This document shows, piece after piece, positions 7,142 through 38,358 of a stretch of 46,485 nt of DNA (its first letter is position 1; every line of letters starts with the position of its first letter). Below the pieces are notes generated by a model. That model did not search any database. It saw nothing but the letters and a program-made list of their open reading frames with translations, and had not been told where the DNA came from. The position numbers and the translations under genes were made by a program. Location of the stretch: positions 1-46,485 of the forward strand of contig CAYVVU010000002.1 in the NCBI GenBank assembly GCA_964455305.1, given 5' to 3'. The stretch is from an uncultured Thermoplasmata archaeon (lineage in GTDB: Archaea; Thermoplasmatota; Thermoplasmata; Thermoplasmatales; CAYVVU01).

Positions 7142-7169
7142 AAAAAGCTAATGAAAAAGAAGTATTTTA

Positions 7170-24600: not shown

Positions 24601-24848
24601 ACTGTAAAGAAGGGAGGTCTGGGATTTCTTGCCCCTAACGGATAGTTGAGCATGGGGTCATACCTTAGATAATGATGATTCTGAACAAAATAATCAATAA
24701 GTCTCTCATAATAATACGAGTCGGAACCCCCAGATACGGAAAAATCCTCAGTAACCGAAGGCTCCCAGGCAAAGTACGCCCTTATAAAGAGGGCTAGGGC
24801 GACGAACATAACAAGTATTCCTACAGTCTTCCAGTTTACCTTTGCCAT
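18651..24848 (-). CDS. aglB: AglB/STT3 dolichyl-(mono/di)phosphooligosaccharide-protein glycotransferase fused to a long C-terminal beta-sandwich repeat array and a second TM anchor
   Basis: Multi-TM N-domain with SGGSDSYYY and NADHDS loops. WWDYG at 23163-23177. The frame opens at 24920, but MAKVNWK at 24848 fits a TATA at 24877-24889. Confidence 0.88.
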   Translation of the reverse strand: MAKVNWKTVGILVMFVALALFIRAYFAWEPSVTEDFSVSGGSDSYYYERLIDYFVQNHHYLRYDPMLNYPLGARNPRPPFFTVSTVAMGYLAYPIFGNLHDGVYAALILSTAIWGALSVIPMYLLGKEMFNKRVGIIAAFLLAVSPAHLMRSVATNADHDSLVLFFSIWVFYFFFKAIKYGKRDMWIDNWRSWKTIKSGFCAFMQENSLALIYSALAGTSLLVIMLTWQGFPYIETILVIYIGLQLFINRFKNQSTLHLFMITLVFTLVSFGAAYPVYGPSLHWYLTPLILMLALLVLALFFEITVRYPWTFLFPLAVLAIGIGLVLIYFLLPDLFKYIVTGQGYFIKTKLYSTIAEAQPAAMGSLIISIGVGVFFLALAGLGYILWRLRKNLNEVYLFIVIYTLVSIYMAISAARFIFNAAPAFALASSFFIDYLLLKLVRVEKKPKAKKWRERIKRVFSARNVVTFTIALFVISPNVWSAVDAGIPYETKSTYDKQIYDLMPPFWKPEKRERAWYLGAFGYSIPKKTYAWSRAWEWLSEQDSNIYPEEDRPAFISWWDYGFEAIHRGKHPTVADNFQYGYQLAGQAITAQNETEVMALFAARIIEGDYKHNDNKLSATVEGIIKRYLGDDGLKEVYEIFSDPLKYKEDILKNPDKYGGPYSNDISDKNCKYVALKGLFVTLGEDGVLNLLKDLERATGYSIRYFAIDYRLFPFNARNTGIFYAPAKLSDRRILEARGMSVPIDFYEIKLVDQYGNEYSPDEFPPGSQVQDYRITYKDMFYHCMLYRIFIGYSGKDIGKGDGIPGISQSLQSEYPMQAWNLTHFKLVYRTAFWNPYKDYQNHSDAWKAIPIDKALEYQREGIGVVELNPPASQVLPNDVVIVKFYEGAIVEGYVRLEDGTPLKKVRVTLFDEYGIPHTSVLTDSNGHYRLYAIAGNGLEIKVTTGGDLDKKMLTEKTVLATWKFNVTEEQAMQLPVDKDHDGLYDYFIKKDFVIKGGGAKGAIYMDLNKNGKVDNDDVKFNGKVILKNDEYNISFEDNLTNGYYEINDLPPYRYNVSIEVFDKRYENIGNITINVGGSITKDFPLKPCTLNISIKYGGSEEEDVSVWVKGTDLDIEYHNYTDTNGTVRFYLPPGHYKVYAEKGNVISDEQSVVFDDWNQSFSLNLELNPAYKVVGKIMGVGDREVTVKIENELTHEADIFIAKNSFERTLTKGIYTVYAECFVGNEKYVFFTNVYLDENKTVDISMKKAYVFSGTVYNNKTKVPADVVIFQGSTFLREHTDDKGNFKIYLPAGQYNVGVVQFGTPYSSFFSIKINSDRNMEIQLGNNTIVHGNVLMKNESIGEGLLFVKSKSLGNCYLINTPKSGNFTVTAPRDFVIDLVSLGYETVDREGNESKYVIQVVQLPVTLKGYIMYENETYTWESVNIQFVSKENIYTTHSKDGFYTIQLPPGTYNITIFGDKRKYAPIINKITVTSGEKIRNVNLPVQVNVEVKFNTSAESINIYDATGELITTGHNITVRPGDYYIYAYSEGKVFFDELSLMENGVIDIPLVSAYRLNVQIENYTGFANVLIKGYKAIMQRGTYGSLSLFLPPGNYSLNVDMTKEEEGIKYRYYGYAEIKNLNSDETIKLRITKIRLRAKIDMKITVGGKEASFATAILQNPALEKKLVADEYGEIHDEIPPGKYSLYIYLKINNTYYAFLGKKDLIAGSNLFEIKLKKAYEMRGGVYIGNEKLNTYIHIENYDFRIPVVDGLYWIYLPVGKYNMSVSVNRYEYGLQIVYNWRGEIDIARNIIYDIYLKRDSVHDVSVEYVGEEVKADVGDWVPLIFKAINHGNDKETLEFSLTNNWNVSFIPEKLTIFPGETKYFTAMVLIPKDASLGNNTITLRVKYADKFADAHAYVNVSEYYSLTLTWKNNRTTSQYIEFGVDVKNNGNVGTTFNLTIINSEELQDKGWYTEIYFNNSKADSIDLDSGESKRIYVRIRRTIDNPARSVRILLMVYNNNVSKILEIKATYASLSIEKVDITGNVLIKPPDITAEIMSWAIASVVIVVAGVAYSIIMRRRYPT
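18801..22193 (-). repeat. protein-level tandem array inside aglB: at least 10 carboxypeptidase-regulatory-like beta-sandwich modules plus 2 CARDB/DUF11-like modules
   Basis: Recurrent module ends: PPYRYNVSIEV, PPGHYKVYAEKG, TKGIYTVYAECF, PAGQYNVGVVQ, PPGTYNITIFG, RPGDYYIYAYSEG, PPGNYSLNVDM, PPGKYSLYIYL, PVGKYNMSVSV. The modules are divergent at DNA level. Confidence 0.6.
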
Positions 24849-24876
24849 ACGAATCGCCCAGAGGCGATATATGTTC

Positions 24877-24889
24877 CCATATAAATAAC
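24877..24889 (-). promoter_or_regulatory. TATA-box candidate (GTTATTTATATGG on the minus strand) for aglB
   Basis: Lies about 35 nt upstream of the ATG at 24848. An ATCGCC-CAGA-GGCGAT inverted repeat at 24853-24868 sits between the box and the start. Confidence 0.4.
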
Positions 24890-24905
24890 TTCCTGATTTG
24901 AACCG

Positions 24906-24913
24906 TATAAATA
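24906..24913 (+). promoter_or_regulatory. TATA box (TATAAATA) for the flippase gene
   Basis: Centred about 25 nt upstream of the ATG at 24935. Confidence 0.45.
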
Positions 24914-24934
24914 GAAACATTAATTATCTTTGCT

Positions 24935-26368
24935 ATGTTTACCGTAGGTCGGATGCAAGAAAGTAGAAGGATATTCAGGGATACCTTACTCACATTGGTG
25001 GCTATGGTAATTTTTGGCTCTACAAATTTTGTATTTAATGTGGCAATAGGTAGGTTCTACGGCAGCGAAATTCTCGGCGAAATTTCTGCATCACTATCCA
25101 CCTCCCTTCTGCTTTCGTACTTCGTGGCAACAGGTTTTCCAAGAGCGTCTTCCAAATATATAAGCGAATATATTGGAAAAAACAAAGAAAATGAGGCGAA
25201 TTATATCTTTAAGCTAGCGCTAAAATATGGTGTTTTAATAAGTATTGCTATTACTGGTATTGCAATAATATTTTTAGAGAATATTGCATCCATATTTGAT
25301 GTATCCGAACACTTTTTTCTTTTGTCACTTCCCCTAATACCCCTCTACGGAATATATATGATTTTAAAAATGACATACTATGGATACAGAAGAGTAAAAA
25401 AGTATTTTAAAAATGAGATAATCTCTGACACCGTGTTTTTCGCATCTTTGGGGATTATAATTTTCTTTGAAAATATTTATCTTGTTTATACTCCATATAT
25501 ATTGCTGTATTTAATTTTCATTATTTTGAGCATTACTTTCTTCCGAAATAAATTTAAAATTGATAAAAATTTTAATAGAAAAAAATTACAGAAAAAATTT
25601 TTCATATACGCAGGCATAGCTTTTGTTGGTACCTTCTCCTCAATGGCTATGCGTAATCTGTCCATAATGATAAGTAGTATGTACCTACCCAAGAGCGATG
25701 TCGGGTTTTTGTCTGCGGCGTTATCGGTAAGTACGATATTTTTTCTTTTTCCAAATGCATTGAACCGCATTCTTTTACCCGAATTTTCATACACCTTTGG
25801 AAAAGGAGATAAAGAAAAATTGACCAAACTTCTTAACAAATCAACTGAATATGTATCGTTTTTCGTAACATTAGTAAACTCCCTTGGAATAATTTTTGCA
25901 CCAATAATTATAGATTTCTTTTATTCCAGCGAATTCGCTGATTCAGTAATTTTACTTCAAATTCTTTTATTTTCATACTGGTTCACTATGGTTGCTAGGC
26001 CGGCCGTTGCGTCACTCTCCGGCACAAAATATGTTCACATTTCAAATTCAGGAGGTGTTCTGGGATTATTTACTGCAATCTGTGGATGGATATTTTTAAT
26101 TCCAACATACGGTATAATTGGAACCGCTATCGGATATCTTCTGGGTATTGTTGTAAATACACTCGTGATTGTTATTTTTGCGCATAAGTATTATAGATTT
26201 GAAATCTGGATTTTGTGCAAACACTTTATTTTAATATCATTTATTCTACTTATTATTCTACTACATTTAACTGTAATATTTGCCCTATGTTTGATATGTA
26301 TATATATCATCGCTGGTAGAAAAGTTGTAATTAGCTTTTTAAAATACTTTAAGCATACTGATAACTAA
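24935..26368 (+). CDS. MOP-superfamily polysaccharide/oligosaccharide flippase (Wzx/AglR-like)
   Basis: 477 aa with about 12-14 TM segments and a polysaccharide-biosynthesis-protein-like N-terminus. It lies in a glycosylation context, divergent from aglB. Confidence 0.65.
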   Translation: MFTVGRMQESRRIFRDTLLTLVAMVIFGSTNFVFNVAIGRFYGSEILGEISASLSTSLLLSYFVATGFPRASSKYISEYIGKNKENEANYIFKLALKYGVLISIAITGIAIIFLENIASIFDVSEHFFLLSLPLIPLYGIYMILKMTYYGYRRVKKYFKNEIISDTVFFASLGIIIFFENIYLVYTPYILLYLIFIILSITFFRNKFKIDKNFNRKKLQKKFFIYAGIAFVGTFSSMAMRNLSIMISSMYLPKSDVGFLSAALSVSTIFFLFPNALNRILLPEFSYTFGKGDKEKLTKLLNKSTEYVSFFVTLVNSLGIIFAPIIIDFFYSSEFADSVILLQILLFSYWFTMVARPAVASLSGTKYVHISNSGGVLGLFTAICGWIFLIPTYGIIGTAIGYLLGIVVNTLVIVIFAHKYYRFEIWILCKHFILISFILLIILLHLTVIFALCLICIYIIAGRKVVISFLKYFKHTDN

Positions 26369-28200
26369 TACTCAATATAATAAAGACTCATATCGCTGGT
26401 TGAATATATCTTCCAGCAATAATTATCAAAATCAATATATTCTAAATTCATGTAAACACGAGGCTTTTTATTTGAATAAATATAACTGATGCCCCTAATT
26501 TTGGCAATATCAAGCACTCTTGTTTGCGGTATAGTTCCAAACCAAGGGTAGATGTTCATATATCTCAAAGAATCATAAAAGTTTCCTAATGCATTATCAT
26601 GTTTTTCACCAACAATTTTTGGATATGAAGGAATAGCGTTTTTTATATATGTGAAACACTCTATATGTTTATTTGTATACTGTGGTTCCTTTGAAACAAT
26701 AGAGTAACTAACAAAAATTGATCCGTTCAATAACAATAAAACAATGAATATGGTTTTAAGAAGCATTTTATACTTTTTGGGTATAGGTGTTGAAAAAAAC
26801 ACGATAATGGCCAATGCTATTAATATATAAACAAATGGAGCCAGATAGAAATATAATCGCTCTGCGACTGTTGTGTAACTCCAATATATTTGAGTTAATA
26901 TGATAACCGGTAAAATAAAAATCACCACAAAGCTGAACAGTTCTATGTGTTTATATTTTGAACCAATATTTCTTAATGTTACATATAAAGATGGAATTAG
27001 AAGTATTAATGCAATGATATTCCAATGCCATAAGTAAAATACTTGTTTTATAATCCTTGCAGTACTATTAGTATAGGTTTCTGCAGATAAAACCTGCCAT
27101 AGTTTTATAAAATATTCAAAAATATTGCCACTAAAATTTATCATTAATTGTTCACCTAAATATATCAAACTTCCAAGCAGGGATATAGGAATTATAAGAG
27201 CAAGCACTATAAATAAAAATTTGTTTATACTTATAAATGGTTTAATTATTGGTAAATCATTTTTTTTATACTTTATACACAAAATCGTTATAAATATAAC
27301 TAAAATATTAATACCTACAAGCCCAATCAAATATGTAGAATAATTTATGCTTGATATAATTTCTATTAAAAATTCAGGTAAAGAGCCTTGCCTTACATCT
27401 CTAATTGAGAAACCAAACAATAAGATATTCTCAAGTTTTATATTTGACCAGTAAACATAAGCAATATCCCATCCAAATATGAACGATGCAATGTAGGGTA
27501 TAGTCATATTCTTCCATAAATGAAAATTCCTCTTAATTATAAAATATAGAGTTGAGTATAAAATAAGAGTTATACCAAACAAAAACACAAAAATCAGACC
27601 TGGTCTATGTGTGATAAATATCGCGCCAAACATTGTTGACGAAATAATAAACTTTTTATATAAAGTCTTAATAGAAATTAGAGTTATTATTATTGACAAA
27701 AAGAAGATGAAATCTAAGTTAGCGTAATGGGAATGTAAAGGACCTTGATTTATTGGTCCAGTTAAATAAGTTGCCATTAAAAAAGAAGATAAAATTGCAC
27801 CTTTCTTATTTTTTAAGAGTGTTTTATATGATAAAAGAAAAACTAATAATATATCCAAGAAGTAATATAAAACCGAAAAAAATCCTACATAATATAAGGA
27901 TATATTCCCAAGCAATGAAAATTCTGCTGCCAAAATAGGAAATCCTACCGGTTTTGGATCATATATCCATTCTGTTGTCCATGGAAAAAAATTTATTTGT
28001 TCTACTTTGTGCTCATTTATAAATCTTTGTGATTGTATTAAATTTGGAACAATATCCCATGATATTATTGACTGTATTGGATATGAGCCAAGCCTAATGT
28101 AGGTTGTTACTGTGATAGAAAATAAAATTATAAATGCTAGAGCAAAATAAACGATGCGCTTTTTAGATGACTGGTAATACATATATCTTAAATGTCTCAT
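26365..28200 (-). CDS. 611-aa polytopic membrane protein of unknown family (possible GT-C-type glycosyltransferase or polymerase)
   Basis: At least 12 hydrophobic helices followed by a C-terminal soluble domain of about 110 aa. I recognise no motif. The functional guess rests on context only. Confidence 0.35.
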   Translation of the reverse strand: MRHLRYMYYQSSKKRIVYFALAFIILFSITVTTYIRLGSYPIQSIISWDIVPNLIQSQRFINEHKVEQINFFPWTTEWIYDPKPVGFPILAAEFSLLGNISLYYVGFFSVLYYFLDILLVFLLSYKTLLKNKKGAILSSFLMATYLTGPINQGPLHSHYANLDFIFFLSIIITLISIKTLYKKFIISSTMFGAIFITHRPGLIFVFLFGITLILYSTLYFIIKRNFHLWKNMTIPYIASFIFGWDIAYVYWSNIKLENILLFGFSIRDVRQGSLPEFLIEIISSINYSTYLIGLVGINILVIFITILCIKYKKNDLPIIKPFISINKFLFIVLALIIPISLLGSLIYLGEQLMINFSGNIFEYFIKLWQVLSAETYTNSTARIIKQVFYLWHWNIIALILLIPSLYVTLRNIGSKYKHIELFSFVVIFILPVIILTQIYWSYTTVAERLYFYLAPFVYILIALAIIVFFSTPIPKKYKMLLKTIFIVLLLLNGSIFVSYSIVSKEPQYTNKHIECFTYIKNAIPSYPKIVGEKHDNALGNFYDSLRYMNIYPWFGTIPQTRVLDIAKIRGISYIYSNKKPRVYMNLEYIDFDNYCWKIYSTSDMSLYYIEY

Positions 28201-28343
28201 TGTGATTTGTGGTATTACTATTCATGTATAAATAATTTACTCATAAAACTCAAACTCTAATTTTTTTAATATAGATAAATTGCATAGTTCTTGGCTCACA
28301 CAAGGCTCGTAAGTTTTTTATTGCAAAATATCATTCTCATCTG

Positions 28344-29714
28344 ATGTCTTTAAAAATGGATTATCCAAATATTGTATTCATAGTGGTTGATTCATTACGA
28401 AAAGATTACGCTAAACCGCTGGAGAGAGAACTAAAGAAGTTAGGATTTATTTCCTATGAGAACGCTATTGCTCCTGCTTCTTGGACTCTTCCTAGTCATG
28501 CTTCTATGTTAACAGGGCTTTATACTTTAGTTCATAGAGCCCATGAAACAAAGACAAAAAAATGCCATGAAATAAAGCTTTCAGCCAACGAAATGCTTTT
28601 AACATATGAACTAAAAAGCAAATACAATTATACCAATTATCTACTTACGCCAAATATGTTCTTATCCCCTTACTTTGGATTTAAAGGGTTCGATAAATAT
28701 TTAATTATTCCTACTCAAAATCGCCTCCTCTCACAGAAAGAGTTGGACTATATCAAAAAGCTTCTATTATCGAAGAAAAGCAAAATGCGAGTAAGTCTAA
28801 AACTCATTAAAGATAAAAAATTTATACTTCTTTCCAAGGCAATATTAACATACTTTAAAAATAGGATTGATCCTATATTAGGTCTAAGCGATTGGCCATT
28901 AGATAAAGGAATTAAAAATGCTCTCAAAATTGTCAAATCGATGAATTTTAATAAACCTGCTTTTGTATTTATGAATATAATGGAAGTACATCAACCTTAT
29001 ACTCTAAAGGAACCATCCTCCGTTAAATTATATTGGGAAAACTTTAGAACTAACAAACTAAATATGGAGATCGTAAAAAAATGGAGAGAAAACTATCCAA
29101 AAGAAGTTGACTATGTAACTAAAAAGATTATAGAATTGATGGTTATATTTAAAGAAAAAGGGATGTTTGATAATTCTTTGATTATTATCACCAGTGATCA
29201 CGGTCAATTATTGGGAGAACATGGAAGAATAGGCCATGGTACATTTTTATATGATGAACTTTTAAGAGTTCCCCTTCTTATAAAATATCCAAAAAACTAT
29301 GGAATTAGGCATGAAATACCAAAAGAAACTAAGTACATATCTCTTACGAAATTAAAACCATATATATTGGGCATACTTGATGGCAAAATAGTTTCTGATA
29401 GTGTTTTATATGAGGATATTGTATTTTCAGAGTCTTATGGAATACCAGAACCAAAACCAAAAGATATAATTAAACAATCTGATTTAACAGAGCAAGAAAA
29501 GCAGAATATTGAAAAACTCGAAAAATACCGCATTACAATCTATTATAGGAATTTCAAGGGAATCTTTAATGTAACTGACTGGAAATTTGAAGAAATAATT
29601 TCATATAATCCAAAGATTGAGATCACAAAAGATATTGTAGAGCTTATGAAAAAGGAAATTATGAAATTCCTAAAGACTGCTACTATTACTAAAGTTTCTA
29701 AAATAAAGCTATAA
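28344..29714 (+). CDS. alkaline-phosphatase-superfamily 'sulfatase'-fold protein with a Thr/His variant of the C-x-P-x-R signature
   Basis: IVFIVVDSLRKDY (metal Asp), WTLPSHASMLTG in place of C/S-x-P-x-R-x-x-x-L-T-G, and SDHGQLLGEHGRIGHG. No signal peptide or TM segment. An alternative ATG lies at 28356. Confidence 0.7.
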   Translation: MSLKMDYPNIVFIVVDSLRKDYAKPLERELKKLGFISYENAIAPASWTLPSHASMLTGLYTLVHRAHETKTKKCHEIKLSANEMLLTYELKSKYNYTNYLLTPNMFLSPYFGFKGFDKYLIIPTQNRLLSQKELDYIKKLLLSKKSKMRVSLKLIKDKKFILLSKAILTYFKNRIDPILGLSDWPLDKGIKNALKIVKSMNFNKPAFVFMNIMEVHQPYTLKEPSSVKLYWENFRTNKLNMEIVKKWRENYPKEVDYVTKKIIELMVIFKEKGMFDNSLIIITSDHGQLLGEHGRIGHGTFLYDELLRVPLLIKYPKNYGIRHEIPKETKYISLTKLKPYILGILDGKIVSDSVLYEDIVFSESYGIPEPKPKDIIKQSDLTEQEKQNIEKLEKYRITIYYRNFKGIFNVTDWKFEEIISYNPKIEITKDIVELMKKEIMKFLKTATITKVSKIKL

Positions 29715-29749
29715 AAACTTTTTAAAACAGAAATTTAGGATTAACATAT

Positions 29750-30952
29750 TTATTTGCATATAATTTGATATATTTCTATAATTTTATAAGCTATATTTTC
29801 CCAAGTAAATTGTTTTGCATATTCTATAATTTTTTTTCTATCCCAATCTTTTTCTAATGCTTCTAAAATTTTTTCTGCTAAGCATTCCGGGTCTTTTGAC
29901 GGACAGAGGAAACCATAATCTTCAGAGTTTATTATTTCTGGAGTGCCGCCAACCGCCGTACCAACAAAAGGTAAACCAACGCCTAGCGCCTCAAACATTA
30001 CTGTAGGATTACCTTCACTCAAACTTGGCAGAACAAAAAGGTCGGCGGCGTTCATCCAGTATTTCAACTTCTCATCTGGAACAAAACCAAGCAACTTAAC
30101 ATGTTCTTGAAGGCCGAGTTCGTTTATTTGCTTTTGAAGTCTGTCTTTAAAGGGGCCATTACCACCTATGTAGCACATAACATCATCTCGCTCCTTAAGA
30201 ACCAATGAAATAGCATCAATAAGGTATTGAAAGCCCTTCCTTTCAACTAGGTGACCTAAACTAAATATTACTTTATATCTTGAAGGAATCTCTAAGAATG
30301 CCCTCGCTTCTTCTTTATTCATAATGGGCAATCTTTTGGGATCAAAGCCGTTAGGAATATGGAACACCCTAGAATTGAACTTCTTAAGTAAGGGTATATC
30401 TCCTTTATTAACTCTTATCAGGGCATCAGCATTTCTCCAAGTCCAATATACCTTCTCGTTCTTGGAGTTGTACTCTTCCAAGAACCAATCCCTATTCTCA
30501 TGAATAGTTATTATGGATGGAACACCGTACTTCTTGGCCAACTTTACCGCAGCGTATCCACTTGGCCATGTAAAATGGGCATGTATAATGTCTGGTTTAA
30601 ATTTTATTTTTTCTAGTATCTTTATGCTTTTTTTAAATGCCATTTCACCCCATTTTCTCTTATGAAAATCAAAAGGCAAAACAAGATCTTTTGTATAGTA
30701 TACTTCAACATTATCATAAGAATAATCTTTCATTAGTGCCTCATGTCTTCTTTTTGGCTGCATGAATTTTGAAATAAATTTGGGTATATATGGAGATGTT
30801 GCAATAACAATAACTCTATTAAAATATTTCTTAACTTCATCAACTTGTTCTTTGACAAAAACATTCCGCGGAAAACCCTCTTTCGGAGGAAATCTTGGAG
30901 AAATCACCAGAAGATTTTTATCTTTAAAGTAATTATAATCAATGTTATACAT
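29750..30952 (-). CDS. GT-B fold glycosyltransferase, family 4
   Basis: EGNPTVMFEALGVGLPFVGTAVGGTPEII E-x7-E region. The gene overlaps the upstream sulfotransferase gene by 8 nt and has its own SD. Confidence 0.8.
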   Translation of the reverse strand: MYNIDYNYFKDKNLLVISPRFPPKEGFPRNVFVKEQVDEVKKYFNRVIVIATSPYIPKFISKFMQPKRRHEALMKDYSYDNVEVYYTKDLVLPFDFHKRKWGEMAFKKSIKILEKIKFKPDIIHAHFTWPSGYAAVKLAKKYGVPSIITIHENRDWFLEEYNSKNEKVYWTWRNADALIRVNKGDIPLLKKFNSRVFHIPNGFDPKRLPIMNKEEARAFLEIPSRYKVIFSLGHLVERKGFQYLIDAISLVLKERDDVMCYIGGNGPFKDRLQKQINELGLQEHVKLLGFVPDEKLKYWMNAADLFVLPSLSEGNPTVMFEALGVGLPFVGTAVGGTPEIINSEDYGFLCPSKDPECLAEKILEALEKDWDRKKIIEYAKQFTWENIAYKIIEIYQIICK

Positions 30953-31982
30953 ACCTATACCTCTCTAGATATGCACCCAAATATGTATCTATAATTTCAA
31001 TATCTTTTTTATTCAATTCTCTTTTCCATCTTCCGGAATGGCTTTTGCTCAGGTCTACCTTCAGCATATTATCATCAAAATCAATGTTCAAAAATTTGCA
31101 AATTTTTTCAAGAGTATTTTCCGTGTTTGTAACCAAATCTTCCAGAGAAATTTCTATATATTTTTCTTTGGGTATCTTTTCTTTCTCAGCATCCCATTTT
31201 TCCAGAATTTGTTTTATTGAATAAACAGCGTCTTCCGTTGTTTTTGCACCCCAGCTCTTAGTTTTATACGAGCAAACAACATCTCTGAAATCCCGATAAA
31301 TGTGTATTATTTTTGCTTCAGGAAACATTTTGATAAGTGTGGATGCAAAGAGTATGTTTGGAGGAGTATGATCTGCCCAGATGTGCTTTTTATATTTATG
31401 TAATGGTTGTGATAGTAGTTCATCAACAAAATCGCCGGTAATCTTGAATATTTCTTCTTTTGCAAATCTTCTTGTAACAAAAATCTTTGGCTTTAAAGTA
31501 AGAGATTCTGTTCCAGTCCAATGACCTGAAAATTCTTTGATCACTATTTTGTCCAAGAATTTGTTTATTATTTTAAAATAATCTTCCCTCTCAATAAACA
31601 CGGAAATTGGTGGTTTTGTGTTAGTGTAATAGCTTTCATTTCGCCAATGTCCGGCCATTGTGTATGTATATTTGAATGGTGATATTAGATTTATCATTTT
31701 TGTTTTCTTTAGAAAATGGAAAAAGCCAGCTTTTAAAATATAAACGGGCAAAGGTGGATACAAAAGATTCATGAATTCAATGAACTTCTTAACAGCATAA
31801 TCTCCGCGGTGGGGCGTCCATTTATCGGATAGATTCTCGCATAGATCAATAGCGCCATTAGGGTCCACGATGAATCTGGTCTCAAATGGATAAACAAATA
31901 TATCTCTATGATAGGATAAAACCCTGCCAAGGATCGTTGTACCGCTTCTTCCGGTTCCTCCTATGAATATAGGACCAGCCAT
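30945..31982 (-). CDS. PAPS-dependent sulfotransferase-family protein
   Basis: 5'-PSB loop FIGGTGRSGTTILG and 3'-PB motif IIHIYRDFRDVVCSY. AGGTGGT SD 5 nt upstream. The start lies 3 nt after the dehydrogenase stop. Confidence 0.75.
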   Translation of the reverse strand: MAGPIFIGGTGRSGTTILGRVLSYHRDIFVYPFETRFIVDPNGAIDLCENLSDKWTPHRGDYAVKKFIEFMNLLYPPLPVYILKAGFFHFLKKTKMINLISPFKYTYTMAGHWRNESYYTNTKPPISVFIEREDYFKIINKFLDKIVIKEFSGHWTGTESLTLKPKIFVTRRFAKEEIFKITGDFVDELLSQPLHKYKKHIWADHTPPNILFASTLIKMFPEAKIIHIYRDFRDVVCSYKTKSWGAKTTEDAVYSIKQILEKWDAEKEKIPKEKYIEISLEDLVTNTENTLEKICKFLNIDFDDNMLKVDLSKSHSGRWKRELNKKDIEIIDTYLGAYLERYRYV

Positions 31983-31985
31983 GTA

Positions 31986-33272
31986 TTACCACCTATAACC
32001 TACAGTTATGTATGGTATATCAATTTTTTTAGATATAGTCCTTCTTCCGTCAGCAATCAGTACTAAATTTTTATATCTACTGTAATCTAAGTTTTTAAAC
32101 TCATCCCAGTCTGCTTGAATTATACATATTTCCGCTTTTTTTAGAGCATCATCCACATTATCTACATATGTTATATTTGGGAACAATTGCTGGAAATTTT
32201 CCTTGGCCTTAGGATCATATGCAATTATATGGGCACCTCTCTTAATGAGTTCGTTTACTATTATAATTGCTCTAGACTCTCTTACATCATCTGTGTTTGG
32301 TTTAAAAGATAATCCCAAAACACATACAGTTTTACCTTTCAGCGATCCTACCTTTTCTTCAACTCTATCTACCAGATGCTTTGGCTGATAATCATTTACC
32401 TCTAGAACGGATTTAAGTAGAATAGGCTCGTAGGATTTTTCTTCCGAGAATTTTATCAGGGCTTTTAAATCCTTTGGAAAGCAGGAGCCGCCGAATCCAA
32501 CACCAGCGTTAAGAAAGTATGGGGATATTCTGTGATCCATACCAACCCCCTTCATAACATCGTATACATCCACGCCACCAATTTTCTCACAGATATTAGC
32601 GATTTCATTAGCAAACGAGATTTTAGTGGCTAGAAAAGCGTTGGAAGCATATTTTATCATTTCCGCAGTTTTAAGATTAGTCCTAAGTATCGGTGCGTTT
32701 AATGGCTTATACAAATTTTCAAGAAAGTCTCCGCTCTTTTTATCATATTCACCAATAACTATTCTATCAGGATTGAAGGAATCATATATTGCGCTCCCCT
32801 CCCTCAAGAATTCGGGATTCATACATACACCGAAATCTCTTCCCACTTTTTTACCACTACCTTTTTCAAGTATAGGTATAACAACATTTTCTGTGGTGCC
32901 CGGAAGTACAGTGCTCTTAACAACAATAACCTTATATCTATTTATTCTCTTGGAAATCTCTTCTGAAGATTTTCTTACATAATCAAGATTTATACTTCCA
33001 TCTTCTTTGCTAGGCGTACCCACACAAATAAAAATAATATCACTTTCATTGATAATATCATAGGAAGTGGATGCCGAAAGTGCTTTGCCAACATGTTTTT
33101 CAAGAAGTTCTTGCAAGCCTTTCTCATATATGGGTGCTTTTCCAGCGTTTATCTTCTCAACCTTCTCTTCATCAATATCAACTAAGGTCACTCTGTGGCC
33201 TAATTCGGCGAATAATACCGCTGTAGATATGCCTACATATCCTGCACCTGCTATTCCTATTTTTTTCATCAT
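31986..33272 (-). CDS. UDP-sugar 6-dehydrogenase (UDP-glucose/GDP-mannose dehydrogenase family; Ugd or WbpA-like)
   Basis: N-terminal Rossmann motif KIGIAGAGYVGISTA, catalytic GFGGSCFPKD, and a C-terminal UDP-binding domain. The substrate (UDP-Glc versus UDP-GlcNAc) cannot be decided by eye. Confidence 0.85.
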   Translation of the reverse strand: MMKKIGIAGAGYVGISTAVLFAELGHRVTLVDIDEEKVEKINAGKAPIYEKGLQELLEKHVGKALSASTSYDIINESDIIFICVGTPSKEDGSINLDYVRKSSEEISKRINRYKVIVVKSTVLPGTTENVVIPILEKGSGKKVGRDFGVCMNPEFLREGSAIYDSFNPDRIVIGEYDKKSGDFLENLYKPLNAPILRTNLKTAEMIKYASNAFLATKISFANEIANICEKIGGVDVYDVMKGVGMDHRISPYFLNAGVGFGGSCFPKDLKALIKFSEEKSYEPILLKSVLEVNDYQPKHLVDRVEEKVGSLKGKTVCVLGLSFKPNTDDVRESRAIIIVNELIKRGAHIIAYDPKAKENFQQLFPNITYVDNVDDALKKAEICIIQADWDEFKNLDYSRYKNLVLIADGRRTISKKIDIPYITVGYRW

Positions 33273-33287
33273 CAGCAGTTAAACCAA

Positions 33288-33301
33288 ACATATATATATT
33301 G
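33288..33301. promoter_or_regulatory. single central alternating-AT TATA element shared by divergent genes (starts at 33269/33272 and 33321)
   Basis: ACATATATATATTG is centred about 23-26 nt from both start codons. Confidence 0.45.
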
Positions 33302-33320
33302 TTTATCTATGTACGCAAAT

Positions 33321-34142
33321 ATGAAAGCTGTTATTCCCGCTGCGGGCTTGGGCACCAGAATGCTCCCAATAACAAAATCGCAACCTAAAGAAATGCTACC
33401 GGTTTTAAATAAACCGGCCATACACTATGTTGTGGAAGAAGCAGTAAACTCTGGATGTGAAGATATTTTGATAATCACGGGCAGAAGCAAAAGGGCTCTA
33501 GAGGATTATTTTGATAGAAATCTTGAACTTGAAGAATTTCTGAGGAAAAGAGGAAAGAAAAAAGAGTTGGATGAAATTATAAAAATATCTGAAATGGCAA
33601 ACATTATGTACATAAGGCAAAAGGAGCCTCTTGGATTAGGACATGCAATTCTTCTCGCCGAAAAATTTGTTGGAAATGAACCTTTCGCGATATTACTCGG
33701 GGATGATATAATAATAGATGATATTCCCGCCACTAAGAAATTAATTGATGTGTATAATAAAACTGGGGATCCTGTTATAGGAGTTATGGAGGTGGAAAAA
33801 CATGAAGTGAATAAATACGGAATAATAAAGCCATCCCATACAAGCAATCCACCTATATATGTGATTGACGATGTGGTTGAAAAACCCGAGATACATAAAG
33901 CCCCGTCCAACCTGGCCATAGTGGGAAGGTATGTTCTTACGCCCGAGATCTTTACATATCTTAAAAAAATTGAACCTGGTAAAAATGGAGAATATCAATT
34001 AACCGATGCGATTAAACTTTATTTGTTCGTGAGAAAAGTACTTGCCCTTAAAATTGAAGGAGTAAGGCTAGACATAGGTTCCCTAGAATCTTGGCTTGAA
34101 GCAAATATATATATGGGAAAAAGACTTGGAATAATCAAATAG
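33321..34142 (+). CDS. galU: UTP--glucose-1-phosphate uridylyltransferase
   Basis: MKAVIPAAGLGTRMLPITKSQPKEMLPV, ITGRSKRALEDYFD and the EKP block. The ORF-track frame opens at 33309, but promoter spacing favours 33321. Confidence 0.85.
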   Translation: MKAVIPAAGLGTRMLPITKSQPKEMLPVLNKPAIHYVVEEAVNSGCEDILIITGRSKRALEDYFDRNLELEEFLRKRGKKKELDEIIKISEMANIMYIRQKEPLGLGHAILLAEKFVGNEPFAILLGDDIIIDDIPATKKLIDVYNKTGDPVIGVMEVEKHEVNKYGIIKPSHTSNPPIYVIDDVVEKPEIHKAPSNLAIVGRYVLTPEIFTYLKKIEPGKNGEYQLTDAIKLYLFVRKVLALKIEGVRLDIGSLESWLEANIYMGKRLGIIK

Positions 34143-35109
34143 AAATAACCATCTTTTTACTTGCTGCTTCCTTAACTTTTTCAATGATTTCAACAGCTTT
34201 TTTACCAACATACATATCTGCTTTTGGTTTAGTTCCATTTTTTATACACCTAACGAAATCTAAAAGTTCCTCTTTCAGAGGTTCCTTATAAGGTACCCTC
34301 CTAATAAAACTACCCTCATTTTTTATTGATTCTTTTGTTATTGAAGCATCATACACAACGATTTCATCGGGTTTAAGATAATCTATTTTTGCAGAAGATT
34401 CGGTACCAATAACAATTAATTCCCTAATTTTACCACCAACTGGAAAGTTCCAACTTACATGGATATATCCAAAAGTTTTTTGAAATTTCATAAAAATATG
34501 GGCATCCTCCTCAATACCTTTTATAAAATTACTGTTAAGTTTCGCAAATATTTCAACAGGATCTTCATTTAAAAGATAAGTATAAATATCAACATCGTGG
34601 ATTGCAAGAGCCATTAAAACTCCCATGTCTTTGCGTGGTACCCTAAGCGATAATCTTCTCGTATATAATGTTAATATATCACCAAATTCTCCCCGTGATA
34701 TCATATTTTTTAACTCAATAAGTGCTGGGTGGTATCTAAATATATGTCCAACCATCAAGATTCTTTCAAAAGATTTTGAAAGATTTATCAACTCCTCACA
34801 TTCAATACTATTTTCTGCCATAGGTTTTTCCACTAGTACATGTTTTCCGTTCATAAGAGAATTCTTTGCTAGGGTATAATGGGTGGGTGTTGAAGAAGAT
34901 ATATCTACCGCATCAATGCTTTTATCTTCAATAATTCTCCTTGGATTCGTTTCGTATTTAACTCCAAAATCTTTTGCAAGAGGTTTCACAGCATTTTCAT
35001 TTATATCACACAAAATAAAATCATCTATAATTCCTTCATCTTTCAATTCTCTCCATACTCTGGCATGGTTTCTTCCCCAGTAACCGGTGCCAATTAACCC
35101 AACTTTCAT
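34135..35109 (-). CDS. Gfo/Idh/MocA-family NAD-dependent oxidoreductase (WbpB-like UDP-GlcNAcA 3-dehydrogenase candidate)
   Basis: MKVGLIGTGYWGRNHA Rossmann start and an EKP motif (VLVEKPMA). GAGGTG SD 7 nt upstream of the ATG at 35109. The ORF-track N-terminal extension to 35211 overlaps the upstream gene and is rejected. Confidence 0.75.
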   Translation of the reverse strand: MKVGLIGTGYWGRNHARVWRELKDEGIIDDFILCDINENAVKPLAKDFGVKYETNPRRIIEDKSIDAVDISSSTPTHYTLAKNSLMNGKHVLVEKPMAENSIECEELINLSKSFERILMVGHIFRYHPALIELKNMISRGEFGDILTLYTRRLSLRVPRKDMGVLMALAIHDVDIYTYLLNEDPVEIFAKLNSNFIKGIEEDAHIFMKFQKTFGYIHVSWNFPVGGKIRELIVIGTESSAKIDYLKPDEIVVYDASITKESIKNEGSFIRRVPYKEPLKEELLDFVRCIKNGTKPKADMYVGKKAVEIIEKVKEAASKKMVISI

Positions 35110-35110
35110 T

Positions 35111-36196
35111 TTAAACACCTCTATAAAATTCTCGGATTTTATTTGCGATAAATATTGCATCTTCATCGCTAAGTTGCGGATGCATAGGTATTGATAATAT
35201 TTCATCAACAATTTTCTCGGTTATGGGCAATTTTGTCGGAGGAAATCTTTCCTTTATACATGGCTGTAAATGAACGGGAATCGGGTAATAAAGTCCCGTG
35301 GCGATGCCTTGATTATGTAAATATTCCCTTAATTTGTCTCTCGTTTTAGCCCTGATCGTATAAACATAATAAACATGTCTTGCCCAATCCTTAACCGTAG
35401 GAGTAACAACAACATCTTCTAAAATTTCGTTGTATATTTTTGCAATTTCATTTCTTCTTTTTATCCAATCCTCCAAATGTTTTAATTGTATTCTGCCTAC
35501 CCCAGCAAGAATCTCGCTAAGGCGGAAATTGTATCCCAACATTGTGTGTTCATATTTTTTGATTCTTCCTTGGTCTCTCAGGGTTGCTATTTTTTCAGCA
35601 AGTTCTTCATCATTTGTAACAACCATGCCACCATCACCGGCCACGGTCATAACCTTAGATGGGAAAAACGAAAATGCAGATGCTATTCCAAAGTTTCCAA
35701 CTTTTTTATTATAATAAAGTGCTCCATGCGCCTGTGCACAATCCTCTATAAAATACAAATCGTGTTCTTCCGCAATTTCCAAAAGAGGTTTTATATCCGC
35801 AGAATGGCCGTAAAGGTGTACCGCAACTATGGCCTTCGTTTTTTCTGTAATCTTTTGTTTTACATCGTCGGGGTCCATCGTATATGTGTTTTCATCAATA
35901 TCGGCAAAAATTGGTTTGGCACCCATATGAACTGCAGGCGTTACGGTTGCTATGAACGTATGCGATGGTGTAATAAATTCAGCACCATTTTTTATTCCCA
36001 AAGCATCATATATTAACCAAAGTGCTGTTGTACCGGAACTGGTACTCACAGCATATTTCGCGCCAAGATATTCTGCAAATTCTTTTTCAAATGCTTTACT
36101 TTCGGGACCTTTTATATATCTTCCAGACTCAAGAATTTCTAATACCCTTCTTTTGATTTCATCATCCACATACATTTTTACCAGTGGATACTTCAT
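35111..36196 (-). CDS. DegT/DnrJ/EryC1-family PLP aminotransferase (WbpE-like)
   Basis: Typical N-terminus (YIKGPESKAFEKEFAEYLG), DCAQAHG, and the FSFFPSKVMT PLP lysine. GAGGTGG SD 5 nt upstream. Confidence 0.85.
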   Translation of the reverse strand: MKYPLVKMYVDDEIKRRVLEILESGRYIKGPESKAFEKEFAEYLGAKYAVSTSSGTTALWLIYDALGIKNGAEFITPSHTFIATVTPAVHMGAKPIFADIDENTYTMDPDDVKQKITEKTKAIVAVHLYGHSADIKPLLEIAEEHDLYFIEDCAQAHGALYYNKKVGNFGIASAFSFFPSKVMTVAGDGGMVVTNDEELAEKIATLRDQGRIKKYEHTMLGYNFRLSEILAGVGRIQLKHLEDWIKRRNEIAKIYNEILEDVVVTPTVKDWARHVYYVYTIRAKTRDKLREYLHNQGIATGLYYPIPVHLQPCIKERFPPTKLPITEKIVDEILSIPMHPQLSDEDAIFIANKIREFYRGV

Positions 36197-36205
36197 AAGA
36201 CCACC

Positions 36206-36808
36206 TCAATAAGAAATTTCATCGGCCCATTTTATTATACGAGCAGGGTTCCCGGCAACCACAGCATTGTCTGGAACATCCTTTGTTACCACCGCTCCTG
36301 CTCCTACAAGAGCATTCTTTCCTATCCTAACACCAGGTAATATTGTTGCGTTTGCACCTATTTTAGCGTTTTCTTCAACAATCACTCCTTTGAGATTTTC
36401 CTTTACACCGGGATATCGGGGATATTTCGCATTTGTCAGAACAGCTCTTGGACCAATCCAAGCATTCTTTTTAATTACACAGTACTCTGGAATAAATGCT
36501 TGAGAATGTATTCTTACATTATCTTCAATTTTGACCTTGAATTCTATAACAGTATTTGTGCCTATGCTTACATTGTCGCCTATTTCGTTAAATTCTCTTA
36601 TTCTAGTTCCATGCCCTGTCTGGAAATTCTTGCCTATTTTGTTGCCTGCATATATACTTGTATGCGACCTTATTACAGAATCATCTCCAATAATTGTAGA
36701 TAGTTCATCCTCACCATAGCCCTTTGGAGGTATGCCTATAACCACAAAGTCCCCTATGTGTACGTTTTTACCAAGTATAACATTTCCGATTAATTTGTAG
36801 CTTATCAT
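36206..36808 (-). CDS. left-handed beta-helix (hexapeptide) N-acetyltransferase (WbpD-like)
   Basis: Repeated [LIV]-G-x4 hexapeptides throughout (IGKNALVGAGAVVTKDVPDNAVVAGNPARII). Start at the ATG at 36808, or at a GTG at 36853 that overlaps the upstream stop. Confidence 0.75.
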   Translation of the reverse strand: MISYKLIGNVILGKNVHIGDFVVIGIPPKGYGEDELSTIIGDDSVIRSHTSIYAGNKIGKNFQTGHGTRIREFNEIGDNVSIGTNTVIEFKVKIEDNVRIHSQAFIPEYCVIKKNAWIGPRAVLTNAKYPRYPGVKENLKGVIVEENAKIGANATILPGVRIGKNALVGAGAVVTKDVPDNAVVAGNPARIIKWADEISY

Positions 36809-36849
36809 GGGAAGTGGAGTATGAAAACATAAAATATAAAATTTATTCC

Positions 36850-37935
36850 TCACATCCTAAATTTAAATTTCTCAATGATTTTATCTTTATTTTTTATGTA
36901 TTCATCTCTGGAATATGGGTAGTTTTCAATAAAGTATACAAGAAATTCTGGTATATCTACGAGATTTTTAATTTCATTTTTGATTATATCTTTTTTAGGT
37001 GTGAGCAAATTCGTAATATTTTCATTATTTAGTTCTTTATAACTATTAAAAATCTTGAGGAAACCTTTATCTGATAAGTGCAATATTACACTTTCTAGTT
37101 TTGCACGAGGAGAAATTAGAATAGATGGTATTCCAAGACAAACCGCTTCTCTGGCAGACATATGACCTTCACCGATATAACCTGAAGAAAATGCTAAGGC
37201 ATCATGAAACATGTAGGGTGGAATATCTAAAGGTTTTCCGTATGGAATTTTGCCTATGATTTTTTCCTCTGATGATATAAAAACCTCACCTAACCTAGAT
37301 AAACTTTTGATAATTTTTTCTCTCTCCTCCCAAGTTATATCTAAACTTAATCTCCAATCATGAGATGCATCCCAGGCGGAAAAACGTACTATGAAAAATT
37401 TATCATATTGGCTTATGTTTAAATAATCTAAAACTTTTTTATCTGGTTCAAAATATTTTGGATGTAAATATGCAAGGGGTCTCCATGTTGGTAAAGAAAT
37501 ATGTTTATTTTTCGGAAATTTATATTTAAAACACTCTTCCGTAATAAAAATATCTGTGAAAGGTTCCGTTAATTTTATAATTAATTTAGCATCTTCAGTA
37601 TCTGCAAAAGTTATGTGTGGTTTACCTATTATTTTGCTAACTTGTGCAGAGTATGGTGAGGTCATACTTATAAGAATATCTGGATTTATCTTCTTTGTTA
37701 TTTTAAGTAGCTTCAAATCATTTTTAATCATAGTTATTGCTTTAGGAATAATCCCTTTGGCATTTGGATATAATTCTATGTAACTCATATTTAAACGTTC
37801 AAGAAGGACTTTCACAGCATTCTCTCTTTCTCTCACAACGATAGATATATCATGTCCTCTATCTTTAAGCATTTTTATTACATGTTTAAACAGATGTACA
37901 TGGCCTGGATGACCTAAATCAAACAATACTCTCAT
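36850..37935 (-). CDS. DUF354-family GT-B/epimerase-like protein, first gene of the diacetamido-sugar operon
   Basis: MRVLFDLGHPGHVHLFKHVIKMLKDRGHDISIVVRERE matches my recollection of the DUF354 N-terminus. A TATA-like AAAATTAATATATC lies about 30 nt upstream. The ORF-track start at 37980 is rejected. Confidence 0.55.
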   Translation of the reverse strand: MRVLFDLGHPGHVHLFKHVIKMLKDRGHDISIVVRERENAVKVLLERLNMSYIELYPNAKGIIPKAITMIKNDLKLLKITKKINPDILISMTSPYSAQVSKIIGKPHITFADTEDAKLIIKLTEPFTDIFITEECFKYKFPKNKHISLPTWRPLAYLHPKYFEPDKKVLDYLNISQYDKFFIVRFSAWDASHDWRLSLDITWEEREKIIKSLSRLGEVFISSEEKIIGKIPYGKPLDIPPYMFHDALAFSSGYIGEGHMSAREAVCLGIPSILISPRAKLESVILHLSDKGFLKIFNSYKELNNENITNLLTPKKDIIKNEIKNLVDIPEFLVYFIENYPYSRDEYIKNKDKIIEKFKFRM

Positions 37936-38358
37936 CCGGTCAAGGAAAAACTTAAAGTGATATATTAATTTTTCAATCACATGCTTTTAACAATACCTCT
38001 GCATATATCCAAGTGGAAGCAGATCAATTGAAAAGACCGGGATAATCTGTTGAAGAGAATGCTTAACAGAAGAGTATACTCACAGAGCTCTTATAAGGGG
38101 AACTTAAGAAATTCTCGATCATATACAAACTTTATCTTCTAATGAAATGAATTATATTGGCGAACCTTCAAATTATATCTTTTCCCAATACGCTATGCTA
38201 GAACTAGCCATCATTGCTAAAACAATTCATATATCCTCATTATATTTTATACCACAGAATGTCTCCTAACATCTTCATCATTCTCCTACACACTTTCTCG
38301 GCATACATATTATCTAACTCTTATGTGAAGATACTGTATAAAGACAAAAGTTTTATGA

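Follow-up and report, generated by a model that had tools for sequence, protein, structure and literature searches.

A predicted PAPS-type sulfotransferase in the N-glycosylation island of an uncultured Thermoplasmata archaeon

Does an archaeon outside the haloarchaea sulfate its glycans, and with which type of enzyme? This question is raised by a small operon of an uncultured Thermoplasmata archaeon (assembly GCA_964455305.1), located on a 46,485-nucleotide stretch of contig CAYVVU010000002.1 that was analysed as a whole and is referred to here as the window. The operon consists of genes for a UDP-sugar 6-dehydrogenase, a 345-residue sulfotransferase and a family 4 glycosyltransferase (GT4). 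Profile searches, motifs and predicted fold identify the middle gene product as a bona fide sulfotransferase of the type that uses 3′-phosphoadenosine-5′-phosphosulfate (PAPS), with a correspondingly predicted activity. We propose that it is a soluble cytoplasmic PAPS-dependent O-sulfotransferase, co-transcribed with the dehydrogenase and the GT4 in an island anchored by the oligosaccharyltransferase AglB, and that it modifies a glycan. We consider this proposal likely to be correct. The enzyme family is known; this member of it is new and uncharacterised, and we found no description of such a sulfotransferase in the N-glycosylation island of a non-halophilic archaeon.

The 345-residue protein matches the Pfam family Sulfotransfer_3 (PF13469) with an E-value of 1.2e-28 (101.3 bits against a cut-off of 27) and Sulfotransfer_1 (PF00685) with 2.4e-11 (44 bits against 22). 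An earlier sequence-only reading of the operon had recognized a sulfotransferase from two PAPS-binding signatures and had named a hidden Markov model (HMM) search against these two families as a check. Both are matched above cut-off, and the HMM and predicted fold agree on a sulfotransferase rather than on another P-loop family. The signatures themselves were located correctly, with GGTGRSGTT, the 5′-phosphosulfate-binding (5′-PSB) loop, at residues 8–16 and YRDFRDVVCS, the 3′-phosphate-binding (3′-PB) motif, at residues 229–238. In an alignment of 35 family members their columns are invariant or nearly so, and G8, G9, R12, G14, T15, H25, E34, R230, D231, D234, S238, G317, R318 and W319 are invariant. 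In a HMMER alignment with human tyrosylprotein sulfotransferase 2 (TPST2), R12, E34, R230 and S238 align with R78, E99, R183 and S191, which we take to be the 5′-PSB arginine, the catalytic base and the 3′-PB pair, respectively.

The predicted fold leads to the same family. An AlphaFold2 model built from the alignment has a pLDDT of 92.7 and a pTM of 0.90, and in a Foldseek search of the PDB all 50 of the top 50 matches are sulfotransferases. The search is led by TPST2 (3ap1, 3.9e-7) and returns TPST1/2, the CurM and OLS sulfotransferase domains, Stf1, Stf9 and cytosolic SULTs, with TM-scores of 0.42–0.58 for the best 17 matches and 0.25–0.46 for the remainder. Across the family, an insertion of about 100 residues separates the two PAPS motifs, and the archaeal subgroup has about 15 residues more. 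No hydrophobic segment of the transmembrane type was found in the 345-residue protein, which is therefore probably cytoplasmic. Archaeal sulfotransferases of the Pfam type are still uncharacterised, according to a 2024 review of polysaccharide sulfotransferases (PMC11625862).

The three genes are tightly packed on the minus strand. The stop codon of the dehydrogenase is separated from the ATG of the sulfotransferase by 3 nt (31983–31985), and the sulfotransferase and GT4 genes share 8 nt (30945–30952), exactly as the sequence-only reading had described. Its further claim of a GGTG-type Shine–Dalgarno sequence for each internal gene holds for the sulfotransferase, which has AGGTGGT about 6 nt 5′ of its ATG; the element 5′ of the GT4 ATG, GAGAGGTATAGGT, is Shine–Dalgarno-like and not a strict GGTG. 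Chance open reading frames (ORFs) are excluded by the Pfam E-values (3.6e-43 for the GT4, 1.2e-28 for Sulfotransfer_3 and 4e-66, 3e-37 and 1e-28 for the dehydrogenase domains) together with hundreds of homologues.

The dehydrogenase is matched by all three UDPG_MGDP_dh domains. Its best NCBIfam model is the AglM UDP-glucose 6-dehydrogenase, with 510.8 bits (under the cut-off of 670), and it scores 446 bits with TuaD, 215 bits with UDP-ManNAc dehydrogenase and 106 bits with TviB. The best PDB match is the UDP-glucose 6-dehydrogenase 3vtf (1.3e-104). A UDP-GlcNAc dehydrogenase of the WbpA/TviB type was judged less likely because the UDP-glucose dehydrogenase models score far higher. For the GT4, the best NCBIfam model is TuaC at 165 bits, well under its cut-off. 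A GalU gene is indeed encoded divergently next door, with a TIGR01099 score above cut-off (Table 1), and probably starts at its second ATG (33321, MKAVIPAAG...). The short spacer between GalU and the operon contains the TATA-like run ATATATATAT and may be a promoter common to both directions. With GalU and an Ugd/AglM-like dehydrogenase in the island, UDP-glucuronic acid (UDP-GlcA) could therefore be made.

The surroundings support the view that the operon is part of an archaeal N-glycosylation island. AglB, the flippase, the AglH-like transferase, GalU, the dehydrogenase, the GT4 proteins and the WbpB/E/D-like enzymes are all encoded within 20 kb. As in AglB-dependent N-glycosylation clusters, the STT3 protein has a WWDYG motif (at residue 582), and nearby genes specify a flippase (MatE/Polysacc_synt) and a transferase of the Glycos_transf_4 type. 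AglB has 12 N-terminal transmembrane segments and one C-terminal transmembrane segment. The WbpB/E/D-like genes, encoding a GFO-type 3-dehydrogenase, a DegT-type aminotransferase and a hexapeptide-repeat acetyltransferase, suggest that the island probably makes a 2,3-diacetamido sugar as well.

The window is archaeal, since it encodes an archaeal-type AdoMet synthetase, the PolD small subunit, TiaS and an MfnA-like decarboxylase. The closest loci are those of Thermoplasmata/DHVE2 and Thermococcus-like archaea, and the GC content is about 35–40%, so the source is a vent-type Thermoplasmata lineage and not a haloarchaeon, the group from which the sequence-only reading had drawn its background. 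Outdated is its statement that the responsible archaeal sulfotransferase had not been defined genetically. Agl7 contributes to the sulfation of a dolichol-phosphate-bound hexose in Haloferax volcanii (2013; PMC3892788), and Agl30 (VNG1056C) and Agl31 (VNG1057C) sulfate the iduronic acid (IdoA) and terminal GlcA of the N-linked tetrasaccharide of Halobacterium salinarum (2025; PMC11980604). Deletion of the latter two genes abolishes IdoA/GlcA sulfation, and their expression in Hfx. volcanii causes sulfation (PMC11980604). Both proteins are sulfatase-like members of the alkaline-phosphatase superfamily, with BT1596 as the template for VNG1056C, and neither PAPS nor another sulfate donor is mentioned for them (PMC11980604). 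In a 2024 review of N-glycosylation in archaea, haloarchaea are the only group with O-sulfated N-glycans, and Thermoplasma acidophilum and Sulfolobus have C-sulfo sugars instead (PMC11407970).

We propose the following sequence of events. GalU and the dehydrogenase would make UDP-GlcA, and the WbpB/E/D-like enzymes would make a diacetamido sugar. The AglH-like enzyme would start a dolichol-phosphate-linked glycan, which GT4-type enzymes would extend. In the sulfotransferase, R12 of the GRSGTT loop and the R230/S238 pair would hold the 5′-phosphosulfate and the 3′-phosphate of PAPS, and E34 would act as the general base on the acceptor hydroxyl. The enzyme would O-sulfate an acidic sugar on the cytoplasmic side of the membrane, most likely while the oligosaccharide is attached to dolichol phosphate, and the flippase and the giant AglB would then export and attach the sulfated glycan. 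We infer here the acceptor, the timing of sulfation and the N-linked fate of the product; sulfation of dolichol-phosphate-linked glycans has a precedent in haloarchaea (PMC3892788, PMC11980604).

The genomic context of the sulfotransferase was followed through its family, which comprises 446 clusters at E ≤ 1e-3. At 92% identity, a full-length metagenomic protein from a sister strain (locus L081 in our numbering) comes closest. The orthologue of Thermococcus gorgonarius is 53% identical, and among species-representative genomes the identity is 43–48% in metagenome-assembled genomes (MAGs) of Thermoplasmata/DHVE2 and 24–35% in many bacteria. Neighbourhoods were counted by tblastn of the window proteins against 85 non-redundant sulfotransferase loci, 17 archaeal and 68 bacterial. 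Within 10 kb of the sulfotransferase (≤10 kb), the dehydrogenase is found in 14 archaeal and 10 bacterial loci, a GalU-like gene in 13 and 3, GFO in 13 and 11, DegT in 11 and 26, the hexapeptide acetyltransferase in 10 and 18, and the GT4 orthologue type in 6 and 17. In six archaeal loci the gene immediately before the sulfotransferase, on the same strand, is the dehydrogenase (in a seventh, L044, the two are adjacent but divergent); in seven it is GFO. The divergent pair of NTP-transferase and dehydrogenase is kept in 13 of the 17 archaeal loci, and 11 bacterial loci, spread over several phyla, have DegT as the immediate neighbour of the sulfotransferase. Taking both domains together, the link of the family to the 2,3-diacetamido-sugar genes is at least as close as its link to the dehydrogenase.

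In the Thermococcus-like locus L084, the sulfotransferase is 74% identical to that of T. gorgonarius. The gene order is AglB, GT2, Alg14/13-like, dehydrogenase, GalU, GT4, sulfotransferase, sulfatase-fold protein, a 595-residue protein with no Pfam match, Gtf3_C, a further sulfatase-fold protein and flippase. Its GT4 is 60% identical to the window GT4 and lies directly upstream of the sulfotransferase; a GT4 with 41% identity lies directly downstream in L001.

The identity of the sulfate donor is indicated by the relatives. In two DHVE2 MAGs (L004 and L011), a PAPS cassette is located directly upstream of a gene series for hexapeptide acetyltransferase, DegT, GFO and sulfotransferase, on the same strand. 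It encodes ATP sulfurylase (1.4e-96), a DHH phosphoesterase, a second sulfotransferase of 187 residues, adenosine-5′-phosphosulfate (APS) kinase (1.8e-54) and a Na+/sulfate symporter. The DHH phosphoesterase is a candidate 3′-phosphoadenosine-5′-phosphate (PAP) phosphatase, because NrnA-type DHH enzymes possess such activity. In L088, the same cassette is found directly upstream of the orthologous cluster, with a Phosphodiest-family protein replacing the small sulfotransferase. In the cultured Aciduliprofundum boonei T469 (L089), it adjoins a glycan cluster and the 345-residue sulfotransferase is missing there. Among the bacteria, APS kinase, CysD-like or CysQ-like genes lie within a few kb of the sulfotransferase in L037, L066, L069, L076 and L079. 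This strong comparative evidence argues that the family uses PAPS, and we infer the same donor for the organism of the window.

The cassette spans positions 2127–7268 in L011, the same in L004, 1321–7282 in L088 and 7383–14083 in L089 (about 234.6–241.3 kb of A. boonei CP001941). Its shared parts in the DHVE2 lineages include the small sulfotransferase (186–187 residues) or, in its place, a Phosphodiest protein, as well as an unknown protein of 204–213 residues, and it always abuts glycan-biosynthesis genes. Beyond distant glycan genes, no synteny was seen between the window and the PAPS region of A. boonei, and a literature search yielded nothing specific on Aciduliprofundum and sulfotransferases.

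Several observations weigh against the proposal of a PAPS-dependent glycan O-sulfotransferase. The position of TPST2 K158 is occupied by H205, which is variable among homologues. The best sequence match in the PDB, a protein-tyrosine sulfotransferase, reaches only 6e-5, and no close homologue is known to have been characterised. Motif scans of the 46-kb window detected no signature of ATP sulfurylase, APS kinase, CysD/N or CysQ, a PAP phosphatase is likewise missing from it, and tblastn of the L011 cassette proteins against the window gave a best E-value of 0.037. In the sister strain, a convergent GT2 gene (L081, 3568–4440) stands right after the sulfotransferase stop codon in the place of the GT4; this exchange in a strain with a 92% identical protein indicates that the GT4 is a frequent but non-obligate partner. 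The acceptor is assigned from gene neighbourhood only. No report of a sulfated N-glycan in Thermoplasmata or Thermococcales was found in the literature consulted, and Agl30/Agl31, the only archaeal N-glycan sulfating enzymes of known fold, have another fold (PMC11980604).

We favor as acceptor a hexuronic acid, plausibly glucuronic acid, derived from GalU and the dehydrogenase, with a 2,3-diacetamido-2,3-dideoxy (uronic) sugar as the alternative. The sequence-only reading had drawn a complete chain, in which the dehydrogenase makes a UDP-uronic acid, the GT4 installs it and the sulfotransferase sulfates it. A predicted supply of UDP-GlcA by GalU and the Ugd/AglM-like dehydrogenase is supported. 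The rest is less secure, as the island also encodes a WbpB/E/D-like pathway, whose genes flank the sulfotransferase as often as the dehydrogenase does in the 85 loci, and GT4 is exchanged for GT2 in the 92% identical strain. That the acceptor is specifically a uronic acid installed by the adjacent GT4 is accordingly a tentative assignment, to which we give less than even weight.

The leading alternative keeps the same enzyme and cofactor and takes as acceptor the product of the WbpB/E/D-like genes, a 2,3-diacetamido-2,3-dideoxy-hexose or the corresponding hexuronic acid. In such a sugar, O-4 would be the sole free ring hydroxyl, and the dehydrogenase may serve that pathway as well. The aminotransferase/acetyltransferase/GFO trio is the most frequent partner of the sulfotransferase across the two domains, as the counts for DegT illustrate, and the adjacency of DegT in 11 bacterial loci and of GFO directly upstream in 7 archaeal loci points in the same direction. 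In L087, the sulfotransferase is located between an AglH-like gene and a DUF354–acetyltransferase–DegT–GFO series, 4.7 kb from the dehydrogenase. Furthermore, the best NCBIfam model of the window GFO protein is the archaeal UDP-GlcNAc 3-dehydrogenase (219.7 bits, under the cut-off of 450). Conversely, it is the dehydrogenase and the GT4, and not the trio, to which the sulfotransferase gene shows translational coupling in the window. In L084, the dehydrogenase, GalU and the GT4 accompany the sulfotransferase, and no DegT, hexapeptide acetyltransferase or GFO gene lies within 10 kb (≤10 kb). Genes of the DegT type occur commonly in glycan clusters of all kinds, which makes some co-occurrence with a sulfotransferase expected, and we know of no sulfated diacetamido sugar. 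We regard this acceptor as possible but rather doubtful.

A different enzyme for the N-glycan is offered by the gene convergent with the operon, which encodes a soluble sulfatase-fold protein of the alkaline-phosphatase superfamily. This neighbour might sulfate the N-glycan as Agl30/Agl31 do, leaving the Sulfotransfer_3 protein a different acceptor, for instance a lipid, a metabolite or some further polysaccharide; alternatively, both might act in sequence. We consider this reading improbable. Deletion and expression data establish sulfatase-like proteins in this role in Hbt. salinarum (PMC11980604), and the neighbour belongs to the same fold class. Its AlphaFold2 model (pLDDT 86.8) has S1 sulfatases and phosphonate monoester hydrolases as its best fold matches, with BT1596 (TM-score about 0.6) among them. 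The pairing of a sulfotransferase with a sulfatase-fold protein recurs in the Thermococcus-like loci L084/L085, and in L084 two paralogues, 43–47% identical to the window protein, follow the sulfotransferase. Phosphodiest proteins of the alkaline-phosphatase superfamily also accompany the PAPS cassettes of L088, L089 and L090, either inside them or adjacent; the neighbour shows no significant similarity to the one in the L088 cassette (E = 0.7).

The active-site sequence speaks against this assignment. At the formylglycine position, the neighbour has T48-L-P-S-H52 instead of the C/S-x-P-x-R motif of S1 sulfatases and is therefore not a canonical sulfatase. T-x-P-x-H is more typical of the phosphoryl-transfer members of the alkaline-phosphatase superfamily. 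T48 and P50 are invariant in alignments of 22 and 24 sequences; conservation of H52 is nearly complete in the first and below 90% in the second. For enzymes of this kind, no sulfate donor has been defined. Members of its family are common in Thermococcales and Methanocaldococcus, the best 120 homologues include no haloarchaeal protein, and among the matches listed the genomes with both families overlap in T. gorgonarius only. A sulfatase-fold gene is found near the sulfotransferase in just one of the 17 archaeal loci, the Thermococcus-like one.

It is also conceivable that the sulfotransferase gene is intact but functionless because the organism cannot make PAPS, and that it came with a cassette gained recently by a variable island. 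The lack of PAPS genes in the window is consistent with this, and so is the base composition: the GC content is about 40% in the housekeeping part, 26–35% across 25–38 kb and 26–32% at 25000–30000. The low GC of this last segment compared with positions 1–25000 suggests that this part of the island varies or has been exchanged, and the strain-level gene replacement described above adjoins the sulfotransferase itself. However, the catalytic residues are all intact, and the sister-strain protein is full-length at 92% identity. PAPS genes need no linkage to the sulfotransferase, and related DHVE2 lineages, including the cultured A. boonei, carry PAPS cassettes. We therefore think it unlikely that the gene is functionless.

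Finally, a protein-tyrosine or small-molecule sulfotransferase (TPST/RaxST-like or Stf-like) placed in a glycan island by chance is very improbable: TPST1 and TPST2 are the closest solved structures by sequence and fold and share the Arg/Glu/Arg/Ser set, but the 6e-5 match, an identity of 14–16%, the TM-scores of 0.42–0.58, the insertion of about 100 residues and the replacement of K158 by H205 separate the protein from them, it is coupled to a sugar dehydrogenase and a glycosyltransferase, glycan-biosynthesis genes are its neighbours in most of the 85 loci, no RaxX/RaxABC-like peptide-precursor or export genes were seen, and Sulfotransfer_3 includes carbohydrate sulfotransferases such as NodH (PMC11625862).

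Table 1. Features of the window around the sulfotransferase operon
Feature	Position	Strand	Evidence or remark
UDP-sugar 6-dehydrogenase (Ugd/AglM-like), first operon gene	31986..33272	-	428 aa; ORF and Pfam
Sulfotransferase, predicted soluble PAPS-type (Sulfotransfer_3 / TPST-like clade)	30945..31982	-	345 aa; HMM, motifs, predicted fold
GT4 glycosyltransferase, third operon gene	29750..30952	-	400 aa; Glycos_transf_1 3.6e-43
Divergent spacer, dehydrogenase operon/GalU	33273..33308	.	36 nt; TATA-like run; letters read directly
GalU-type UTP-glucose-1-phosphate uridylyltransferase, divergent	33309..34142	+	TIGR01099 364.3 bits, above 326.8 cut-off
Soluble sulfatase-fold (alkaline-phosphatase superfamily) protein, convergent with operon	28344..29714	+	Pfam Sulfatase 5.2e-17
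AglB/STT3 oligosaccharyltransferase, long CarboxypepD_reg-repeat extension	18651..24920	-	2089 aa; STT3 3.1e-21
MOP-type flippase (MatE/Polysacc_synt)	24935..26368	+	Pfam; 11 hydrophobic segments
Polytopic membrane protein, between flippase and sulfatase-fold gene	26365..28200	-	611 aa; at least 11 hydrophobic segments; no Pfam/NCBIfam match
GFO/WbpB-like UDP-sugar 3-dehydrogenase	34135..35211	-	GFO_IDH_MocA 2e-24
DegT/WbpE-like sugar aminotransferase	35111..36196	-	DegT_DnrJ_EryC1 4.7e-126
Hexapeptide-repeat (WbpD-like) sugar N-acetyltransferase	36206..36853	-	Hexapep 1.6e-26; NeuD/PglB/VioB family 6e-31
DUF354 protein	36850..37980	-	PF04007 6.7e-11
AglH-like polyprenyl-phosphate HexNAc-1-phosphate transferase (Glycos_transf_4)	38359..39336	+	PF00953 1.3e-26; 9 hydrophobic segments
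Second GT4	13806..14975	+	Glycos_transf_1 3.1e-19

Other features of the island are collected in Table 1. AglB is unusually long, with about 1500 residues of CarboxypepD_reg/transthyretin-like repeats followed by the C-terminal transmembrane anchor, and a CARDB-domain protein (17887–18654) is encoded after it. The 611-residue membrane protein shows no similarity to the 595-residue protein at the equivalent place in L084 (E = 3). The GFO gene probably starts at the ATG at 35109 (residue M35 in the listed ORF), which comes 1 nt past the DegT stop codon, so DegT and GFO are also tightly coupled. DUF354 adjoins the sulfotransferase in L001, L021 and L087. The second GT4 is 53–58% identical to the gene after the dehydrogenase in the DHVE2 loci L002, L004, L006 and L011. 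It lies directly after the dehydrogenase in those loci and 17 kb from it here, which indicates a rearrangement of the island. Elsewhere in the window, two minus-strand ORFs (7170–8717, 515 aa, and 9297–10640, 447 aa) have no or marginal Pfam matches, and the region 7001–8000 has a strongly negative GC skew (−0.53) and an AT skew of −0.38.

If the proposal holds, archaeal glycan sulfation would have two unrelated enzyme solutions. That thermophilic Thermoplasmata and Thermococcus-like archaea have a PAPS-type sulfotransferase in their agl islands predicts a wider spread of such sulfation among archaea. In sister lineages, the sulfotransferase is accompanied by linked genes for sulfate uptake, PAPS synthesis and candidate PAP recycling. 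Whether N-glycans are sulfated outside the haloarchaea, and by which of the two unrelated enzyme types, is now a directly testable question. T. gorgonarius, with its orthologue, and A. boonei, with its PAPS cassette and small sulfotransferase, are both cultured and thus provide direct experimental handles, and the sulfotransferase is a thermostable candidate carbohydrate sulfotransferase. A more far-reaching possibility, which we regard as speculative and unlikely, is that the clade serves specifically to modify sugars of the 2,3-diacetamido-2,3-dideoxy (uronic) type, whose pathway bacteria and archaea share. It would yield a sulfated di-N-acetylated sugar of which we know no description and, in hydrothermal-vent Thermoplasmata and Thermococcales, form a self-contained sulfation island with linked PAPS cassettes and sulfatase-fold partners having a Thr nucleophile. 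Through such an island, archaea other than halophiles would obtain sulfated N-glycans by a mechanism different from that of haloarchaeal Agl30/Agl31.

The locus combines features of several known systems. With the Sulfotransfer_3 (PF13469) enzymes TPST1/2, the CurM/OLS domains, Stf1/Stf9 and NodH, the 345-residue protein shares the GRSGTT 5′-PSB loop with its Arg, the 3′-PB R...S pair, the Glu general base, the C-terminal GRW(K) element and the predicted fold. It differs from them in the insertion of about 100 residues, in its location in an agl-type archaeal island and in having no characterised close relative; it is just 14–16% identical to the solved members and, unlike TPST2, lacks an equivalent of K158.

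The precursor pathways can be compared in the same way. The GalU and Ugd pair resembles AglF/AglM of Hfx. volcanii, which supplies UDP-GlcA for the N-glycan, and AglM is the best model of the dehydrogenase. The window dehydrogenase nevertheless scores under the AglM cut-off (510.8 against 670), whereas GalU is above its own (364 against 326.8), and the host is not a haloarchaeon. Pseudomonas WbpA/B/E/D/I and Methanococcus maripaludis MMP0350-0353 form the pathway to UDP-2,3-diacetamido-2,3-dideoxy-glucuronate. The window has the same GFO/DegT/hexapeptide acetyltransferase trio adjoining a UDP-sugar 6-dehydrogenase, but its proteins are all under the equivalog cut-offs for those pathways, which, to our knowledge, include no sulfotransferase as described.

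For sulfation itself, Agl7 of Hfx. volcanii provides the precedent for a reaction on the lipid carrier (PMC3892788). The convergent neighbour of the operon has, in its predicted structure, the fold class of Agl30/Agl31. The sulfotransferase is alike to Agl30/Agl31 in its proposed role, the sulfation of a uronic acid in an archaeal N-glycan from an aglB-anchored cluster, and Agl31 is soluble too. The proteins are nonetheless unrelated, with a predicted P-loop-like sulfotransferase fold here and an alkaline-phosphatase/sulfatase-like fold in Halobacterium.

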